A stretch of DNA of 27,365 nucleotides from a virus (taxonomy: Duplodnaviria; Caudoviricetes), in IMG/VR virus record IMGVR_UViG_3300042549_004128, positions 1-27,365 of that record; one strand, given 5' to 3'. This document shows, piece by piece, positions 10,966-19,201 of the stretch. Both the position numbers and the translations under genes were made by a program. Position 1 is the first letter of the stretch; each line of letters begins with the position of its first letter. The notes under the pieces were generated by a model that searched no databases, had not been told where the DNA came from, and was given only the letters and a program-made list of their open reading frames with translations.

Positions 10966-11340
10966 TCGATGTCTGAAAAAATCTGCTCGACATTTTGGAG
11001 GTGATTGGGCAAAACAGTTTTCGCCATGCCAAAAACCGCATCCCAAAACGCCCCGCTGACCCCTCTGGTCATCGGCCTCACCCAAAACCCGACCCCTGTC
11101 TGTCGCTGTCAGACGCCTCAGGTCACCCACCCACCCCACAGCCCCAGCCACCAGCCCGCTGGAAATCAGACGGCGGAACCGACTCCTTCCCCTATGGGGA
11201 ATGTGAACGGTTCGCCCAGCAACGGTTCGCCGTCTGAACCTTCCCACGAGCCCACCCCCAGCCACCAGCCCGCCCAGCCCACGGAGCCTTCGGCTCAGAC
11301 GGCCCCCAATTCCACCCCCCAAAATTCCACCCAAAATCCC

Positions 11341-12531
11341 ATGCCCAACATCCCACCAGCCCAGCCCCAGCAGCCCGCCACCCCGAACCTCAAGGCTTTA
11401 GCCTTGGAAGCCTTAATCGGCCCTCGGGGAACCATCAAGCCGTCCTCTGGACGGAATGGTAACAAGAACCTCATCAAGAAGTGGCTCACCGAGAAAGGCG
11501 TAGCCTTTTCGGTGTCTGGTTGGGCCACGGTCAAGGAACTTGGTGCTGTCTATAATGACACTACTGACACCATCCTGAATCAGATGCTTCAGAAGTCTTC
11601 GACTTCTGCCCAGCCCAATCAGCAGAATCAGCAGACTCAGCAGACTCCGTCTGCCCCGACCGCCCAGCCCACGACCCCTCAGACAACTCCGTTGTCTGTT
11701 CCGACTCCCAAGACCCCGAAGACGGCGAAGCCGATGAAACATGCCCTTCACGACGAAGTCGTGGAAGTGATGTCTGTCGGTCTGAATGCCTTTGTCTTCG
11801 GCCCTGCTGGAAGTGGTAAGACCACTTTGGCTGGTTCGGTCGCTAAGTCCTTGGGACTTAGGCTGTTCATGACAGGAGCAGTCCGTAAGGACTTCAAACT
11901 GTTCGGTTTCATCGATGCCCATGGCAACTATCGGTCTACGACCTTCCGAGATGCCTTTGAAAACGGCGGTCTGTTCCTGTTCGATGAAATCGATGCCTCA
12001 GACAGCGGTGTCCTTCTCCAACTGAATGCGGCCTTGGCAAACGGAGTTTGCGACTTCCCCGATGCCACCATCAAGGCTCACCCTGATTTCAGGGTGATGG
12101 CTTCAGCCAATACCAACGGTGACGGTGCTACTGCATCTTATTCGGCAAGACAGTTGCTGGACGGTGCTTCTAAGGACCGATTCATGACCTTCACTTGTGA
12201 CTATGATAACAGTCTGGTGAAGCAAATCGTGGCGGACATGTGCAAAAATCCTACGGATTTGGCTGTCTGTCTGGATTGGAATGACGATGTCTGTCTGATT
12301 CGCAAGTTGGCTAAAGCCAACAGCATCAACCTCATCCTCAGCCCCCGAGCCACCTTCATGGGAGTGAAACTCCTGACGAATCCGAATCGCAAGGTCTTTA
12401 AGACCAAGGCCGATTTGATGGATGGCCTTGTCTGGAACAAACTGTCTGACGAAAATACCCGAAAGCGTCTCAAGGGCCTCTTTGAGGCCGAGAAAGCCAA
12501 GGCCATCGTCACCCCCGCTGTCACCGCCTAA
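11341..12531 (+). CDS. MoxR/CbbQ/CobS-like AAA+ ATPase with N-terminal extension
   Basis: Walker A GPAGSGKT, Walker B FLFDEID, 'HPDFRVMASANT', 'LDGASKDRF', 'LSPRAT'. The frame is open back to 11005/11026, but 11341 has the typical C/A-rich leader. Confidence 0.9.
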   Translation: MPNIPPAQPQQPATPNLKALALEALIGPRGTIKPSSGRNGNKNLIKKWLTEKGVAFSVSGWATVKELGAVYNDTTDTILNQMLQKSSTSAQPNQQNQQTQQTPSAPTAQPTTPQTTPLSVPTPKTPKTAKPMKHALHDEVVEVMSVGLNAFVFGPAGSGKTTLAGSVAKSLGLRLFMTGAVRKDFKLFGFIDAHGNYRSTTFRDAFENGGLFLFDEIDASDSGVLLQLNAALANGVCDFPDATIKAHPDFRVMASANTNGDGATASYSARQLLDGASKDRFMTFTCDYDNSLVKQIVADMCKNPTDLAVCLDWNDDVCLIRKLAKANSINLILSPRATFMGVKLLTNPNRKVFKTKADLMDGLVWNKLSDENTRKRLKGLFEAEKAKAIVTPAVTA

Positions 12532-12600
12532 CCCTACTGTCCAAAGGACAGCCCCTCACCCCGAGGGGTTGTCCGAAGGACAACCAACCAAAAAAAACAC

Positions 12601-13557
12601 ATGTCTAACGACCAACTCAAGGACCTCATGGTCCTTCCCAAAGAGCGACAGACGGTCAGTCTGTCTGAAGGTGTCCGTCTCACTTCGGAGTTCAAATCCA
12701 TCGGTGGATTTGTCCTGCTGGAAGCAGACAGCATCGAAAAGTATCTGGCCTTCCAGACCGTCTTCGACGGTAAGGCTACGGGCCATGAACGGCATTCCCG
12801 AACCAACTCTGCCTCCAAGTCTTGGGACTTGAATACGGGTTGGGAAGGCCACCAGAAGATTCTGGTGGAAGGCTGGAAGGCTGGTGTTGACGGTCTAAAG
12901 ACCGCCCAAGCCACCTTCCCTTCGACAGGTTCCTTCGGAAAAATCCCAGACAGCGACATTGCTGGAGGTTCGCTTTGCGTAGCAACTTACTGCTCTGGTG
13001 CTCCAGACTACTACGATGTAGACCCCGAGGAAGACAGCCTTGGTTCCACCAAGGTCATCAAGTTGGTGGTTCCTGTCGGTGCTACTGCTGGATACTCTGC
13101 AGAGTATCTGTTCAATCGTGGTGCTGGAATCGTGGCGGCAATCCAAGCAATCGAACGGTCTGGAAAGCAATGTGAGGTCTGGGCTGAATCTGCGGCCACG
13201 ACCTCTGGTCAGCCAATCTGTCAGCGTGTCTTAATCAAGTGGGCTGGTTCTCCTCTTGACCTGAATACGATGGCTGTCTGGTTGGCTCATCCTGCCACCT
13301 TCCGACGACTGTTCTTCTCTGGTCGAGAATGTCTGTGGAATTTCCAGACCCCTGTGGGGTCTGTCAGACACATCCTCGGCGGAGACTACGGTTCGACCTG
13401 TCAGGGTCCTACGGACAAGATGTCTGAAGGCACTATCTACTTGCCTCTGGCAAGAGACGGTAACTACGGCACTCCCAAGGCGGCCCTTCAGACTCTGTCT
13501 GAAATCTTCAAGTCCGCTGGGTTCTCCTTGGACTTCGGTGACCTGAGCAGCATGTAA
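12601..13557 (+). CDS. vWA/CobT-like partner of the AAA+ ATPase (degenerate MIDAS)
   Basis: 318 aa next to the AAA+ gene; 'IKLVVPVGATAGYSAE..NRGAGIVAAIQAIERSG..CEVW' and 'HPATFRRLFF' resemble phage vWA-like partners. Confidence 0.65.
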   Translation: MSNDQLKDLMVLPKERQTVSLSEGVRLTSEFKSIGGFVLLEADSIEKYLAFQTVFDGKATGHERHSRTNSASKSWDLNTGWEGHQKILVEGWKAGVDGLKTAQATFPSTGSFGKIPDSDIAGGSLCVATYCSGAPDYYDVDPEEDSLGSTKVIKLVVPVGATAGYSAEYLFNRGAGIVAAIQAIERSGKQCEVWAESAATTSGQPICQRVLIKWAGSPLDLNTMAVWLAHPATFRRLFFSGRECLWNFQTPVGSVRHILGGDYGSTCQGPTDKMSEGTIYLPLARDGNYGTPKAALQTLSEIFKSAGFSLDFGDLSSM

Positions 13558-13617
13558 GGACGAAACAGACACCCTTCGGGGTGTCTGTCTTGCGGTGAAA
13601 CCGCAACTGATGAGTCC
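13558..13617 (+). ncRNA. Hammerhead ribozyme, type II (HH1), GUC cleavage after 13589
   Basis: GGAC-GAA-ACAGACACCC-UUCG-GGGUGUCUGU-C-UUGCGG-UGAAA-CCGCAA-CUGAUGA-GUCC: all core nucleotides present with three perfect stems. Confidence 0.96.
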
Positions 13618-13637
13618 ATCAGACAACTTTTCCCACC

Positions 13638-13994
13638 ATGAAAAACCAAACCAAAATCCCCGCCAAACTCATCGCTCGTCCTAAGGACGAACTGCTTCCG
13701 CTTCGTCTGACCGACGCCCACAAGGAGGTGCTCAAAGACGGACGAAAGGTTCGACTGCTGTCTAAGTTGGTCAAGACATCCCCTCATTGGGGAACTGTCT
13801 GGGCTGAATTCGACGGCCTCCTCTGGGGCTTCGCCGTCTCCAACTACGCTCAGACAATCTCGGTCGGTGACCCCGAAGACAGCAACGAGAACCCCGAAGT
13901 CATCGATGTCGATGTCTGGTCGTTCAATACGGCCTACATGGAAGGCCGAATGGTTACTGTCTGCAAGGAACTCATCGAATACCCCTCTCTCTAA
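13638..13994 (+). CDS. Hypothetical early protein (118 aa)
   Basis: ORF with phage-typical codon usage and a C-rich leader, directly after HH1. Confidence 0.8.
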   Translation: MKNQTKIPAKLIARPKDELLPLRLTDAHKEVLKDGRKVRLLSKLVKTSPHWGTVWAEFDGLLWGFAVSNYAQTISVGDPEDSNENPEVIDVDVWSFNTAYMEGRMVTVCKELIEYPSL

Positions 13995-14001
13995 TCCCAA
14001 C

Positions 14002-14580
14002 ATGAAAATCAAAATCACCCCCCACCAAGCCGTCATGGCTGAAGTCGAAACCCTCAGACAAAACCGTCTGGCCATCCTGTCTTTGGGCGTCAAGGGGTTT
14101 ACCCCTTCCCAGATTCAGAGGATGTCTGACATGGTCGAGGAACTCGAAAAGAAAATCGCAGACTTCACCGAAGGTGCTCCGACTGACCACGGTCCTTACG
14201 CAGACAATGGCATTGGCTACAAACGGTATGTCTGCGAGACGAATCCTGCTGGATTCTGTCTGTCTGTTCAGAACCACATCGCTGAACTTGTCTACGCAAT
14301 CCGAATCAATCCGTCTCGTAAGGCCCCCATGGGATTCCATGAAGACGGAATCGATGCGAGCATGGCATGTGGCGTCTATCACCCCAGCAACTTCATCAAC
14401 TTAGACACCATCATCAAAAAGGCTGTCTGTCTGGACGAAGACATGTGGGAGCACTTCGTCGTAGCCCCCATTGAGGGCGAAGACAAGGAACTGTCTAAAG
14501 ACAGGCATAAACTCTGGTGCTTCACAGGCATCAGCCCCAAGACACGCATCTACGAGCGTGGCAATCGCAAGGGCGTCTGA
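14002..14580 (+). CDS. Hypothetical early protein (192 aa)
   Basis: Start MKIKITPHQ 7 nt after the previous stop; codon usage consistent with neighbours. Confidence 0.8.
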   Translation: MKIKITPHQAVMAEVETLRQNRLAILSLGVKGFTPSQIQRMSDMVEELEKKIADFTEGAPTDHGPYADNGIGYKRYVCETNPAGFCLSVQNHIAELVYAIRINPSRKAPMGFHEDGIDASMACGVYHPSNFINLDTIIKKAVCLDEDMWEHFVVAPIEGEDKELSKDRHKLWCFTGISPKTRIYERGNRKGV

Positions 14581-14640
14581 CCACCCACGCAACCCCAGCC
14601 ACCTGCCCATACATAACCTAGGCACAATACGCATGAGAAA

Positions 14641-14679
14641 GAAAGGTGCTTGACAATCGACAAATTGTAGGCATCTTTC
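14641..14679 (+). promoter_or_regulatory. Sigma70-like promoter within a hairpin (copy 1)
   Basis: TGCTTGACA-N7-AATTGTAGGCATCTT; perfect -35; core shared with 17418-17448. Confidence 0.7.
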
Positions 14680-14715
14680 CAATCGAGCATCACCTCCCAA
14701 CCCACAAAAAAACCA

Positions 14716-15156
14716 ATGAAATCCGCACCGCAATACGGCATCGTCATCCAGAATCTCATCGCTCTGGACGAACTGCACAACGAGGTCACGAACCGCCTGT
14801 CCCACATCGAGGCCAGCGTGGAAACCTACCTCGAAAATCCCAAGCACATCAAGAAGCCCGACACGCTGGGCAAGTGGAGCAAGCGTAATGCTGGCCCCCT
14901 TGCAGACATCGAACGAGCCCTTGACGACATCGGACAGGCCGAAGGCCACCTGACGACTCTGTCTGCCAACCTTGACCGCTGGCTAGACACGAAGTCTCCT
15001 GTGGACGGCGTGCCCAGCGAAGACATCAAGTTCGTGGACTATGTCCACATCATGGCTCGTCTGGAGGAAGCCCGTCTGAATCTCCAGAATGCGGAATGGC
15101 TCGTCAGCCAGCCCGAGTTCGTGACCTTCATCACCCACATCGAAGACAGCATCTAA
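14716..15156 (+). CDS. Hypothetical early protein (146 aa, helical)
   Basis: ORF after the promoter and a C/A-rich leader. Confidence 0.8.
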   Translation: MKSAPQYGIVIQNLIALDELHNEVTNRLSHIEASVETYLENPKHIKKPDTLGKWSKRNAGPLADIERALDDIGQAEGHLTTLSANLDRWLDTKSPVDGVPSEDIKFVDYVHIMARLEEARLNLQNAEWLVSQPEFVTFITHIEDSI

Positions 15157-15265
15157 TCCCTTTGCCTTGTCTGTCTGAGGTTCATGTTCCCGAACATACC
15201 TCATTGAACAGGCGAACCCAGACAGACAGGCATCCACTCTCACCCACCCAGACACCCCCACATAT

Positions 15266-15466
15266 ATGCCCACCATCAAGCCCACCATCCACAACCCAGA
15301 CGGCAATATTTTTGCCATCATCGGCATGGCCCAAGCGGCCCTCCGAAATCGTCCGACCTCGCTCGACCTTTTCAAGGCGAAGGTCAAGACAGCGATGTCT
15401 GACGGAACCGACTATGACGGCATGCTCGTCATCATCCAAGAATTCGTGAACATCGAAATCGACTAA
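15266..15466 (+). CDS. Small conserved phage/plasmid hypothetical protein (66 aa)
   Basis: 'DGNIFAIIG...AL...DYDGML' pattern recalled from small phage proteins; not checked against a database. Confidence 0.8.
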   Translation: MPTIKPTIHNPDGNIFAIIGMAQAALRNRPTSLDLFKAKVKTAMSDGTDYDGMLVIIQEFVNIEID

Positions 15467-15504
15467 CTTTTCACCCACCCAGACAAACCCAAAATAATAC
15501 CAAC

Positions 15505-15870
15505 ATGCCCAAAGCCCAAAAGCCCAAGTCCACCCCCGCCTTCCTCGTGGAGGTCGTGACCACCACGGTCGGGAAGAATCTCAAGGTCACCCCTGTGACC
15601 GTGGGAGACTTCACCGACATCCACAAGCACCTCGGCATCGAAGGCGGGACCTTCACCTTGGTCCGTCTGAACACCTACGGAGATGTCATGTATGTCGATG
15701 ACGAAGGTGCTCTCAAAGAGAACACCCTGATGTATCTGAACGGCAACTATCCCATCTACGGCAAGGGCCTTGTCTTGGGCTCGACCGCAGACGGAGATGA
15801 CAAAGCCCCGCACATGAACATGCAGGAAGTCGCAGACATGTGCCACCACTTTGAGGCCCGCCCCTACTAA
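15505..15870 (+). CDS. DUF3846-like protein
   Basis: 'DVMYVDDEGAL...PIYGKGLVLG' motif. Confidence 0.7.
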   Translation: MPKAQKPKSTPAFLVEVVTTTVGKNLKVTPVTVGDFTDIHKHLGIEGGTFTLVRLNTYGDVMYVDDEGALKENTLMYLNGNYPIYGKGLVLGSTADGDDKAPHMNMQEVADMCHHFEARPY

Positions 15871-15907
15871 CCTTCACCCACCCAGACACAACCAACCAGA
15901 CACAACC

Positions 15908-16324
15908 ATGAGCGAACCCATCCAGACCAACCACACCCAGCCCGACCTGTTCACCAGACAGGCCGAGGCTGTCCACGAGTTCAAGGCGAAAGCCTTGTCT
16001 GTCATGCGAGACGATGTCGCAGACAGGAAGCACCTCATCGATTCCTGCGTCAACTACATGCTCGCCATGCAGAGGGACATGAACCGAGTCCACGACAACC
16101 TCGCCATCGTCAGACAGCAACTCGAAAGCCGTGACTACGAGCGAGTGCTCAAGAACATGGAAGACGCTGGCTGGGTCATGTCTGTCATGAGGGGTCGAAT
16201 GAACCGTCTGTCCAAGGACTTGGTTCAACCCCTTTACAGCGAACGCCTCGCAGACAAGGTCGCCTCGCTCACCGAAGACAGGCCCATCCGAACCGTCACC
16301 CCAGACACCTCTGTCCAGAAATAA
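15908..16324 (+). CDS. Hypothetical early protein (138 aa, coiled-coil)
   Basis: Start MSEPIQ after the repeat leader. Confidence 0.8.
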   Translation: MSEPIQTNHTQPDLFTRQAEAVHEFKAKALSVMRDDVADRKHLIDSCVNYMLAMQRDMNRVHDNLAIVRQQLESRDYERVLKNMEDAGWVMSVMRGRMNRLSKDLVQPLYSERLADKVASLTEDRPIRTVTPDTSVQK

Positions 16325-16349
16325 CTCTCACCCCCAACCCAGACACACC

Positions 16350-16592
16350 ATGAGCCAACAGACAGACATGAACGGCATTCCCCTCCCTCCGCCCCCTGCC
16401 CCCTCGCAAGAGTGGGTAGACAAGAAGGCCACCGACTTCCTCGCTTGGGGTCGTGGCTCTTGGGGCCAAGGCCCCTATGACCAAGCCCGTTATGACAACG
16501 GGACGATGCTCCGCATCTGGACCGCCATCGCAGACAAGGCCAAGGCCCACGCCGAGTTCCTGTCTGACAAGACGCCCCACGAAACCAACTAA
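16350..16592 (+). CDS. Hypothetical early protein (80 aa)
   Basis: Bounded by repeat leaders on both sides. Confidence 0.75.
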   Translation: MSQQTDMNGIPLPPPPAPSQEWVDKKATDFLAWGRGSWGQGPYDQARYDNGTMLRIWTAIADKAKAHAEFLSDKTPHETN

Positions 16593-16619
16593 CCCTCACC
16601 CCCAAAATAAAATACGAAC

Positions 16620-17003
16620 ATGACCAAGTCCCCCGAAGCCATCACGAACGAAATCATCGCCATCCACGAAACTGTCTGCGACCTCAAGCGGAAGGCCCAG
16701 ATGCTCGCCACCTCCGACAAGCCCGAAGACAGGACGACCTACTTGGCCCTCAAGGCCGAGTGGGGTGTCTTGGAGAACAAGGTCGTGGACCTCGTCATCG
16801 AGCGTCGCCACGCCTTCCGTCTGGAGGCCATGCAGGAGAAGGCAGACATCAAGCACGACCTCGATGAGGAGATGGAGCCCATGACCCATGACGAGGAGAT
16901 GGACCTCTATGACAGCATCGAGTCTGCGAATCCGTCTGGCCGTGATTTGCCAGACAGGAACGAAGACGGCGAATACCTCAACGGCGGAGGCTACATGCCG
17001 TAA
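16620..17003 (+). CDS. Hypothetical early protein with acidic C-terminus (127 aa)
   Basis: Bounded by repeat leaders; D/E-rich tail. Confidence 0.8.
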   Translation: MTKSPEAITNEIIAIHETVCDLKRKAQMLATSDKPEDRTTYLALKAEWGVLENKVVDLVIERRHAFRLEAMQEKADIKHDLDEEMEPMTHDEEMDLYDSIESANPSGRDLPDRNEDGEYLNGGGYMP

Positions 17004-17039
17004 GACAGACAACTCTCACCCACCCAGAAAAACATACCT

Positions 17040-17399
17040 ATGCCCACCCCCGAAAAAGAAATGTTCCTCATCGGAACCATCATGTCTGTCTGCATGGCAG
17101 ACTTCAAAGCCAAGAACGAGGTCCCCAAGTTGGAAGACAGGCTTCCGCTGGGCGACCTCGCCATCACCGCTAGGGCCCATGAAGCCCTTGGCGACAAGGT
17201 CTGTCTGCATCTGGGCTTCGCTCAGAATGCGACCGTCTGGGGGAACACCCTCGGAGACGAAGACAGACAGACGAACGACATGGCCATGAAGAATGGCGGT
17301 CGCATCCTGTCTGCTTGGACCCTTGACGGAGAAGGTTACTATGTCATCACGGAGCACGACCGTTCCGTCACGACCATCATGCGAAAGGAAGACTACTAA
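17040..17399 (+). CDS. Conserved plasmid/phage small protein ('LG....T...WG....D...N......G.RILSA......ITE.DRS.TT....EDY' family)
   Basis: Recognisable motif pattern; function unknown. Confidence 0.8.
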   Translation: MPTPEKEMFLIGTIMSVCMADFKAKNEVPKLEDRLPLGDLAITARAHEALGDKVCLHLGFAQNATVWGNTLGDEDRQTNDMAMKNGGRILSAWTLDGEGYYVITEHDRSVTTIMRKEDY

Positions 17400-17406
17400 A
17401 AACAAA

Positions 17407-17455
17407 ATCGGGCAACATGCTTGACAGCCTAATAATTGTAGGCATGTTGCTCGAT
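17407..17455 (+). promoter_or_regulatory. Sigma70-like promoter within a hairpin (copy 2)
   Basis: TGCTTGACA-N7-AATTGTAGGCATGTT inside the inverted repeat ATCGGGCAACATGC/GCATGTTGCTCGAT. Confidence 0.7.
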
Positions 17456-17470
17456 ACCACTTTCCCCCCA

Positions 17471-17857
17471 ATGAGCAAAAACCCAGCACAGCGGCCCACG
17501 GCCCTCACTAAAGCGTTCCGTCATCTCCTGCACGACTACATGGTCGAGCGTGATGAAGGCAGGACGCCCTACACCTCCAAGGCGAGCGATGCCTACAAGG
17601 AGGCCCACCGTAAGTTTCAGGAGATGGCTCTGGAGGCCGACCAAGGTGTCGCCTCCGCTGTCGTCGCCTCCGTCTGTCGGACGGTCTATGACGAAATCAA
17701 GGACAAGAAGGGAGACGGCATCGAGGCCATCCAGCGATGGGACTTCGGCATCCTCCGTTCCCTGTCTGTCTTCTACTCGTCCATGAGGATGTCTGGCGAA
17801 GACAACTTCCTGTCTGAGAAACCCCTTCCCCCCAACAACAACCAAGATACCAAATAA
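17471..17857 (+). CDS. Hypothetical protein (128 aa)
   Basis: Start MSKNPAQ downstream of promoter copy 2. Confidence 0.78.
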   Translation: MSKNPAQRPTALTKAFRHLLHDYMVERDEGRTPYTSKASDAYKEAHRKFQEMALEADQGVASAVVASVCRTVYDEIKDKKGDGIEAIQRWDFGILRSLSVFYSSMRMSGEDNFLSEKPLPPNNNQDTK

Positions 17858-17864
17858 TACGAAC

Positions 17865-18356
17865 ATGACGAACAACCAGAACCAGAACGGTGGCTTCGAC
17901 CCGAACGGTCACCACATCGCCATGGAGGCTCAGGAATTCCTGAACTTCCTCGGACACATCACCCAAGCGACCGTCATTGCGGCGGTCACCGCTGGGTCCA
18001 TGTCTGAGGACATCAAGAAGATTGAGGACCTCCTGCAGGACGGCAAGGTGGACGAGGCCCTGAAGGAACTGCAGTTGATGAAGCGTGGCATGGTCCTCAT
18101 CAGCAAGACTGTCTGCAAGGTCGGTTCCGAACTGACCCTGCACGACCAGAAAATCTGCGAGGGCTGTGAGGCCAAGGGCATGTCCGTGGAGTCGGTGACG
18201 GCCACGCACATCGAACGGTTCCAGCAAGACACGAAGGGCTTCATCGATGAGTTCTTCTCTGCGACCCCGCACACCAAGATTGTCAAGCCGCCCGAAGGCA
18301 AGAAGAAGAAGGACGATGACATCGACCCCTTCAGTTCGGGCTCTCGGTTCAACTAA
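17865..18356 (+). CDS. Hypothetical protein (163 aa)
   Basis: Leader AAATAATACGAACATG similar to that of the 16620 gene; consistent codon usage. Confidence 0.8.
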   Translation: MTNNQNQNGGFDPNGHHIAMEAQEFLNFLGHITQATVIAAVTAGSMSEDIKKIEDLLQDGKVDEALKELQLMKRGMVLISKTVCKVGSELTLHDQKICEGCEAKGMSVESVTATHIERFQQDTKGFIDEFFSATPHTKIVKPPEGKKKKDDDIDPFSSGSRFN

Positions 18357-18366
18357 GAACCAGACA

Positions 18367-18438
18367 GGACGAAACAGGCAGACGCAACAGGCATGGTGCG
18401 TCTGTCTGTATCTGGGTGAGGCCCAGACTGACGAGTCC
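18367..18438 (+). ncRNA. Hammerhead ribozyme, type II (HH2), GUA cleavage after 18410
   Basis: GGAC-GAA-ACAGGCAGACGCA-(10 nt)-UGCGUCUGUCUGU-A-UCUGGG-UGAGG-CCCAGA-CUGACGA-GUCC: intact core, one G-U pair in stem III. Confidence 0.95.
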
Positions 18439-18489
18439 CTCGCAGAGACAACTTTCACCCCCAACCAAAAACCAAACAACCAGACAGAC

Positions 18490-18705
18490 ATGAAGCACAA
18501 CAACCGAAACCGTAAAGGCAACAAGCGGGCCGTCATCCTCGTCACGCAGATAGACATGCTCCCTCTCCATGAGGACGGCATGTGGGTCGTGCGGGAGGAG
18601 GTCTACGACAATCAGACAGGCAAGGCCGAGCAGACGGTCGAGCACAAGTTCGTCCACAAGGCGGACGCCCAGAAGTTCATCGACTCGTGGGTCGGCCAAC
18701 TCTAA
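18490..18705 (+). CDS. Hypothetical protein (71 aa)
   Basis: Start MKHNNRN after HH2 and the repeat leader. Confidence 0.75.
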   Translation: MKHNNRNRKGNKRAVILVTQIDMLPLHEDGMWVVREEVYDNQTGKAEQTVEHKFVHKADAQKFIDSWVGQL

Positions 18706-18712
18706 GACAGAC

Positions 18713-19201
18713 ATGGCCATGGAATACAGAGAGCACCTGTTCACAGACAGGCTCAACACGGACGCCATCGTGTCCTTCCACCTGAAGGTCGTGCCCAAGC
18801 CAGACAACAACTTCGGCACAGCGACCTATATCCTGCTTGGTGATGACGGCGAAGACAGGACCTTCATCGACCACTTTGAAGACACAGTCTCCAGACCGAG
18901 CAATGTCTGGTTTGAGCCCATGACGATGGGCGTGGAGGTGAACTCCGTCCGCATCGCCAAGAACTTCCTGTCAGACAGGTTCGGCCACGGGACCGATGAC
19001 TATGCCTGTGGTCCGTGCTATCTGGCAGGACAGGCGTGGGTGTCGTTCCGAGACAGACACGGTCGCCGTCTGGGGCTGTCCTTTGACGAGGTGTCCAAGG
19101 TGGTGGCAGACACGATTCGCTGGCGGTTCCCGCTGGACGAGATGGTCCTGCATTCTGCGGCCATCAGTCGCAACGCATCCCGCATCCACCCCACGCCGTG
19201 A
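18713..19201 (+). CDS. Hypothetical protein (162 aa)
   Basis: Start MAMEYRE 7 nt after the previous stop; last gene of the plus-strand block. Confidence 0.72.
   Translation: MAMEYREHLFTDRLNTDAIVSFHLKVVPKPDNNFGTATYILLGDDGEDRTFIDHFEDTVSRPSNVWFEPMTMGVEVNSVRIAKNFLSDRFGHGTDDYACGPCYLAGQAWVSFRDRHGRRLGLSFDEVSKVVADTIRWRFPLDEMVLHSAAISRNASRIHPTP

Follow-up and report, generated by a model that had tools for sequence, protein, structure and literature searches.

Why phages carry self-cleaving ribozymes among their small genes is still an open question (PMC6765202, in part). That hammerheads lie between phage genes, and that they might process mRNA, is already known from Perreault 2011 (PMC3088659), passages of which describe type II hammerheads clustered at prophage genes, an mRNA-processing hypothesis and three clusters that cleaved in vitro. 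Here we ask what one such hammerhead, HH1, which directly abuts the stop codon of a phage gene, would do to its transcript, and with what its 3′ flank pairs.

The window, that is, the whole stretch of DNA analysed, is a single contig of 27,365 nt (IMG/VR IMGVR_UViG_3300042549_004128, Caudoviricetes). Its minus strand encodes terminase, an SU10-like portal and adaptor and the major head genes, which mark it as a tailed phage, and its plus strand carries a gene run at ~11005–19201 led by a CobS-like AAA gene, with a DUF7192 gene next and then small, mostly uncharacterised ORFs; from this gene content we infer that the run comprises 'early' genes. By terminase, the nearest cultured phages are Microcystis phage Mae-Yong1326-1 (53%), in which small genes likewise come after a CobS gene, and Rhizobium phage RHph_N65 (47%). 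A structural descriptor found no type II hammerhead in either of them, and blastn of HH1 against cultured phages gave no match.

Table 1. Positions in the window of HH1, a second hammerhead (HH2) and neighbouring features of the plus-strand gene run.
Feature	Position	Strand	Remark
AAA_5/CobS-like ATPase gene, operon head	11005..12531	+	phrog_249; true start perhaps a few codons downstream
Intergenic hairpin with internal loop, AAA/DUF7192 gap	12538..12582	+	fold z −7.8
DUF7192 (PF23822) gene, 318 aa, upstream of HH1	12601..13557	+	stop codon provides A(−1)
HH1, type II hammerhead, including the conserved A 5′ of stem II	13557..13617	+	predicted cut between 13589 and 13590
U1.7, likely Hoogsteen partner of A13557 (stem I to stem II flank)	13596	+	conservation
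Anti-core hairpin, CUGAUG 13607–13612 with CAUCAG 13617–13622; excludes stem II	13607..13622	+	predicted fold, family enrichment, covariation
118-aa ORF, uncharacterised, downstream of HH1	13638..13994	+	missing in close relative L001
Promoter-like repeat TTGACA-N9-TTGTAGGCAT, copy 1	14650..14674	+	inferred promoter
Promoter-like repeat TTGACA-N9-TTGTAGGCAT, copy 2	17421..17445	+	inferred promoter
HH2, type II hammerhead; A(−1) and U1.7 present, separate anti-core flank CUCGCAG	18366..18445	+	predicted cut between 18410 and 18411

Several other features of this genome are recorded in their own right. The hairpin in the AAA/DUF7192 gap, which by its look may be an RNase III-type processing site or else a minus-strand terminator, has a similar counterpart of unrelated sequence at the same place in relatives with 54% DUF7192 protein identity. 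The promoter-like repeat TTGACA-N9-TTGTAGGCAT occurs as two exact copies in the window (mean 0.27 and largest 1 in shuffles), is unlisted by a sigma-70 scan and may be a promoter specific to the host or to the phage; two genes separate copy 2 from HH2. A 70-nt intergenic stem-loop (15163–15232, z −6.1), identical at 69/71 positions in the close relative L001, has no Rfam match, and a small gene between the two ribozymes (15505–15870) matches DUF3846 weakly (E 1.2e-4, short of the curated cut-off). Within the gaps of 13623–18490, plus-strand genes have A/C-rich leaders (e.g. TCACCCACCCAGAC) in which no Shine-Dalgarno word is evident, as might be expected if the host can initiate translation without it. 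The commonest hexamer of the 27 kb is CAGACA/TGTCTG, with 194 counts over both strands in genic and intergenic DNA; it is rich in relatives L273–L281 (2.8–9.9 per kb), stands at 0.04 per kb in Mae-Yong1326-1 and could be a DNA-modification, binding or uptake signal. CGCG is nearly missing (2 versus 156 expected), and GTAC and CCWGG are also depleted.

HH1 has the parts that the initial annotation assigned to it: a complete core (GAAA 13562–13565, CTGATGA 13607–13613, GTC triplet 13587–13589), a 10-bp stem III with a UUCG loop (13565–13574/13579–13588, including A15.1–U16.1), a 7-bp stem I with a GAA loop (13590–13596/13600–13606) and an open 4-bp stem II (GGAC 13558–13561, GTCC 13614–13617). 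The stop codon TAA (13555–13557) abuts GGAC, as had been noted, and the next ATG, at 13638, begins 48 nt past the predicted cut. A three-way junction with CUGANGA, GAAA and an NUH triplet, together with stems I and III that change sequence and stay paired in the 54% orthologues, identifies the hammerhead class (CL00010); stem II is invariant in sequence among orthologues. Loop-closed stems I and III and an open stem II correspond to the type II topology (RF02276). The assignment to type II, the predicted cut and the geometry of the products, all proposed at the outset, thus find support, and a hammerhead is kept behind the same gene in relatives. On sequence alone the hammerhead pattern matched twice in the window and in none of 100 shuffles, and the fold z of HH1 is −4.6. 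An Rfam search, which the initial annotation had suggested, did match HH1 with RF02276 over the whole model, but with stem II misaligned; its 29.9 bits (E 0.022) fall short of the gathering score, set at 37, which is a curation cut-off of the Rfam model and not a structural requirement of the class. At gathering thresholds Rfam gave no match in the whole window, and at E up to 10 it gave only HH1 and three weak unrelated matches. A third hammerhead was not found by the structural descriptor on either strand of the window. A type I/III core candidate overlapping HH1 was rejected as having a 2-bp stem only, as was an antisense hammerhead, the minus strand having no core there. One RNA run (X1, share 0.06) yielded three contigs at a depth of 2.4–3.9, none spanning HH1; one of them stops at 18370, which is 40 nt short of the predicted HH2 cut, although contigs cannot show RNA ends.

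To follow HH1 across relatives, we built a DUF7192 profile from 10 sequences (the window's and 9 of 10 homologue matches) and fetched nine loci. A hammerhead follows the DUF7192 gene in 8/8 loci with downstream DNA, the ninth locus ending inside the gene; these eight correspond to about three independent groups, with 88, 74 and 54% protein identity, and one of them, L273, is identical with the contig of L001. Over HH1 and its tail, L001 agrees with the window at 66/66 positions, compared with 270/300 in the adjoining gene end and 33/38 just downstream, and a homologue of the next gene comes after HH1, without the 118-aa ORF. The stop codon is flush with stem II at HH1, L273, L278 and L279; in the 54% group the stop-to-ribozyme gap is 11–12 nt, not 0, and stems I and III are of different sequence. 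The core, GGAC/GUCC, A(−1) and U1.7 are invariant across the DUF7192 orthologue loci. No other ribozyme classes were found in five related loci, and L276 and L281, with 8 kb of downstream DNA each, contain one hammerhead only. Judged by its sequence, HH1 is genuine and well conserved, and both its ribozyme class and its setting were known before.

A family survey, limited by design to hammerheads with GGAC/GUCC or GGUC/GACC as stem II and with counts uncorrected for kinship, extended the comparison. Two scans of viral contigs (18 and 13 of 64 parts) gave at least 145 and at least 125 loci; among the matches listed, 154/157 and 135/139 distinct sequence-only matches had paired stems, and the structural descriptor gave at least 180 and at least 146 hammerheads. 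After removal of three window/L001 entries, five near-duplicates and two flankless entries from set 1, and of 11 duplicate or flankless entries from set 2, 170 and 135 remained (305 together, among the matches listed). A third scan, of genome contigs, gave 85 loci; no paired hammerhead was present in 25 of them, and the set kept comprises 54 new ones. Some viral contigs carry at least 5–8 type II hammerheads within ~5 kb (L018/L019 of IMGVR_UViG_3300021976_000015, L037–L039, L002–L005). Matches in isolates of Nocardioides sp., Phycicoccus jejuensis, Streptomyces iakyrus, Kutzneria and Microvirga (L287, L296–L298, L309–L311, L302, L351) point to named organisms as possible culturable test systems; L287 has a CUGAC/GUCAG tail without A(−1) and U1.7. 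Among the matches listed, the ATG of a long ORF lies within 40 nt downstream in 233/289.

Throughout this family, two bases outside the core are nearly constant: A(−1) is present in 299/305, U1.7 in 296/305 and both in 295/305 among the matches listed, and the genome set (n = 54) has A(−1) in 49 and U1.7 in 47. A Hoogsteen contact between U1.7 and an A of loop II is described for other hammerheads in passages of PMC11875169, which relate it from O'Rourke et al., and the bases it calls for are present at HH1, namely U13596, A13557 and a 4-bp stem II; contact of U13596 with A13557 is thus the probable tertiary contact of HH1. U1.7 faces an A in HH1, a rare case among the matches listed (21/233, with G in 172/233), and this A could compete for the Hoogsteen contact. 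The initial annotation had instead paired loop I UGA with UCA in the 3′ flank (13619–13621). The letters are indeed complementary, and remain so in L273, L278 and L279, but comparative tests lend the pseudoknot no support: the complementarity is not kept in the 54% orthologues, and among the matches listed loop I forms at least three Watson–Crick pairs with the first eight flank bases in 73/297 (67.4 ± 6.9 with swapped flanks) and at least four in 10 (13.1 with swapped flanks). HH1 itself allows only 3 bp, fewer than the at least 4 bp of the Perreault-consensus pseudoknot. Because Perreault 2011 (PMC3088659, in passages of it) states potential pseudoknots for the majority of type II hammerheads, and its consensus uses one between loop I and the 3′ tail, our result is limited to the sampled GGAC/GUCC and GGUC/GACC subclass.

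The comparatively supported partner of the HH1 3′ flank is the catalytic core, not loop I. In the lowest-energy predicted fold, which the initial annotation had missed, core and flank are paired at −33.8 kcal/mol versus −31.2 kcal/mol for the constrained hammerhead, in a calculation that omits the non-canonical core contacts and so does not settle the balance between the two folds. The same tail recurs in the family. TCAG within the first 12 flank bases was found in 33/170 and 18/135 among the matches listed and in 9/54 of the genome set, compared with 3–8, 0–5 and 0–3 in six same-size control windows per set; shuffling of set 1 gave a mean of 5.0 and a maximum of 15 (versus 33/170 among the matches listed). 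Pooled, this makes 60/359 among the matches listed, versus controls of 3–9 of 305 and 0–3 of 54, an enrichment of ~6-fold across the three scans among the matches listed. Moreover, the base before TCAG covaries with core position N7: sets 1 and 2 have, among the matches listed, N7/base combinations of T/A in 31, C/G in 10, T/G in 2, C/A in 1 and others in 7 (p 2.8e-7 for both sets, p 0.011 for set 2 alone, uncorrected for kinship), and the genome set has C/G in 6, T/A in 2 and T/G in 1. A second type of hairpin appears aimed at GAGUC, with G[AG]CT[CT] in 17/151 GUCC members versus 1/139 GACC members among the matches listed. A looser fold test detected a tail in 96/305 (31%) among the matches listed, compared with 8–20% of controls.

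The tail is not a requirement, since it occurs in ~17% of the family (among the matches listed), is reduced to 5 bp in L278 and L279 and does not persist as this hairpin in the 54% group. Random flanks from the same operon equal the tail strength of HH1 in 6.8% and of HH2 in 9.3% of trials, and the family signal is therefore stronger than that of either single locus. The 5-mer CAGAC, enriched genome-wide, overlaps the HH1 tail. We rejected the idea that the tail generally blocks a downstream ribosome site: the ATG is farther away in TCAG members (median 28.5 versus 21 nt in unlocked ones), and a Shine-Dalgarno-like word lies within the first 16 nt in 5/51 TCAG members versus 111/209 unlocked members among the matches listed. 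We could find no published description of a covarying anti-core tail such as that of HH1; none for natural type II hammerheads turned up in the literature searched, a coverage that excludes most subscription journals.

Both hammerheads of the window carry an anti-core tail. The body of HH2 (18367–18438), 10 nt past a stop codon at 18356, combines a GUA triplet with a long stem III, shares stem II GGAC/GUCC with HH1 and was unmatched in Rfam even with a 151-base query. Its predicted folds are −40.4 kcal/mol locked versus −38.3 kcal/mol for the constrained hammerhead, and in L001 its loop I changes from GAG to AAT with the flank unchanged, which also counts against a loop–flank pseudoknot.

How far the tail matters is where the possible readings part. 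HH1 might be a plain, fast constitutive cutter whose tail is incidental, arising by chance or from a palindrome-perfecting template-switch mutation, or serves as a pseudoknot. Such a cutter would fit the many relatives without a tail, the 164/206 unlocked members that fold straight into the hammerhead among the matches listed, and the frequency with which random local flanks match the HH1 tail; the UGA/UCA complementarity of three loci and the prevalence of pseudoknots in passages of PMC3088659 would suit the latter variant. We consider it unlikely, because the ~6-fold enrichment and N7 covariation over three scans, and a second hairpin type that tracks stem II identity (all among the matches listed), speak against an incidental tail, and loop I TGA is in no excess in TCAG members (12/50, versus 46/247 others, among the matches listed), which speaks against the pseudoknot. 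A much less credible reading makes HH1 an inactive or selfish relic acting merely as a pair of hairpins. It would agree with the locked lowest-energy fold and with the 4/18 consensus hammerheads found inactive (PMC3088659, in part), but the core bases have all been retained, together with A(−1) and U1.7, although stem sequences differ from one orthologue group to another, and HH1 and tail are unchanged in L001. Equally hard to credit is that HH1 and HH2 together excise the 4.8-kb block 13590–18410, which reverse ligation or the host's RtcB would then close into a circle or splice. The ends would be a 5′-OH and a cyclic phosphate, and the shared GGAC/GUCC allows a chimeric hammerhead, but this stem II sequence is common, in the cleaved product GUCC would be masked by the tail, the block contains both promoter-like repeats, L276 and L281 show a single hammerhead, and no circular or spliced products were detected in the work reported in passages of PMC3088659.

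The stop codon invites a further reading. A sense stop of an ORF of at least 60 codons lies within −1 to +5 nt of stem II in 205/296, versus 17/289 antisense, among the matches listed, so that the stop proximity of HH1 is typical of the family, and the stop supplies A(−1) in 105/296 among the matches listed. A ribosome terminating at the abutting UAA would, as we take its footprint geometry to imply, hold GGAC and G12 inside its entry channel. With stem II thereby held open, the tail might capture the core, and cleavage would depend on upstream translation; with a selected tail near balance and the terminating ribosome turning cleavage off, HH1 would be a switchable hammerhead, and the early mRNA would be cut or stay whole according to upstream translation. 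The flush stops at HH1 and three relatives, the stop-derived A(−1) and an excess of overlapping stops among loose locks (44/92 versus 61/204, p 0.004, one of four uncorrected tests, among the matches listed) argue in its favour. Against it, neither comparison links the strict TCAG tail to a nearby stop (35/50 versus 170/246, p 1.0; 21/50 versus 84/246, p 0.33; among the matches listed), loose locks show no link with the wider stop window (p 0.42, among the matches listed), the stop stands 10 nt off at HH2 and 11–12 nt off in the 54% orthologues, termination is transient, and the overlap is explained by genome compaction together with the requirement for A(−1). Translation coupling of HH1 is thus possible and not favoured; we hold both the coupling and the full switch to be improbable.

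The reading that we prefer, and regard as fairly probable, is that HH1 cuts the polycistronic phage RNA after C13589 and that its tail damps cleavage and seals the 5′-OH product. From hammerhead chemistry, transcription of GUCC would close the 4-bp stem II and let U1.7 dock on A13557, and catalysis by G12 and G8 would then leave a 2′,3′-cyclic phosphate on the upstream RNA and a 5′-OH on the downstream RNA. The upstream AAA-DUF7192 message would end in the stem III hairpin and the downstream message begin with stem I, the cleaved halves being held by 4 bp only. Five bases past GUCC, the flank would become able to pair with CUGAUG in a fold that the model places ~2.6 kcal/mol below the hammerhead. 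Before cleavage, the tail would trap a fraction of transcripts uncut; after it, the tail fold would be unopposed, so that re-ligation would be disfavoured and two stacked hairpins would stand at the 5′ end of the downstream mRNA. Overall, the fixed AAA-DUF7192 module and the variable small genes would each have an mRNA of their own, separately stabilised, with HH1 acting much like a natural ribozyme insulator. The effect of downstream competitors was reportedly studied in a hairpin-type ribozyme test system. Such competitors can block ribozyme folding in vivo (PMC2817708, in part), and related type II hammerheads cleave in vitro and in cells (passages of PMC3088659 and PMC8782182).

The type II hammerheads of Perreault 2011 (PMC3088659, as far as its passages describe them) resemble HH1 in topology, core, location between small phage genes, occurrence more than once per genome and proposed processing of polycistrons. 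Neither an anti-core tail nor a stop-codon overlap like those of HH1 was encountered in main-text passages of that paper, in whose main text 'stop codon' has no occurrences, and HH1 scores below the Rfam cut-off. With the U1.7–A hammerheads of sTRSV and Schistosoma (PMC11875169, in part) HH1 shares a 4-bp stem II, U1.7 and, immediately before the returning strand of stem II, an A; that A lies in a tetraloop in those ribozymes, whereas in HH1 it is in the open 5′ flank, as the last base of the stop codon, and the contact there is one that conservation suggests. Desulfovibrio vulgaris type II hammerheads (cyPhyRNA-seq; PMC8782182, in part), likened here to HH1 by description and not by sequence, are also near phage-like genes and cleave in cells. 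Function, rather than membership, is the basis of a last comparison. RiboJ is reportedly synthetic and of a different permutation. HH1 would work as RiboJ insulators do (PMC12857756, in part), in that self-cleavage would leave the following cistron with a 5′ end that is structured and stays fixed whatever sequence lies upstream.

Neither the ribozyme nor its setting is out of the ordinary; what the locus adds is handles for telling modes of processing apart. Some are single bases, with a natural compensatory pair (CUGAU/AUCAG versus CUGAC/GUCAG) and the A(−1)/U1.7 contact, and others are natural orthologues with a stop–ribozyme gap of 0 or 11–12 nt; together they let a plain reporter distinguish translation-coupled control from constitutive and from damped processing. 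Should the tail tune cleavage, partial cutting would be built into roughly one in six of these hammerheads, among the matches listed, and assays on constructs trimmed at stem II would miss it.
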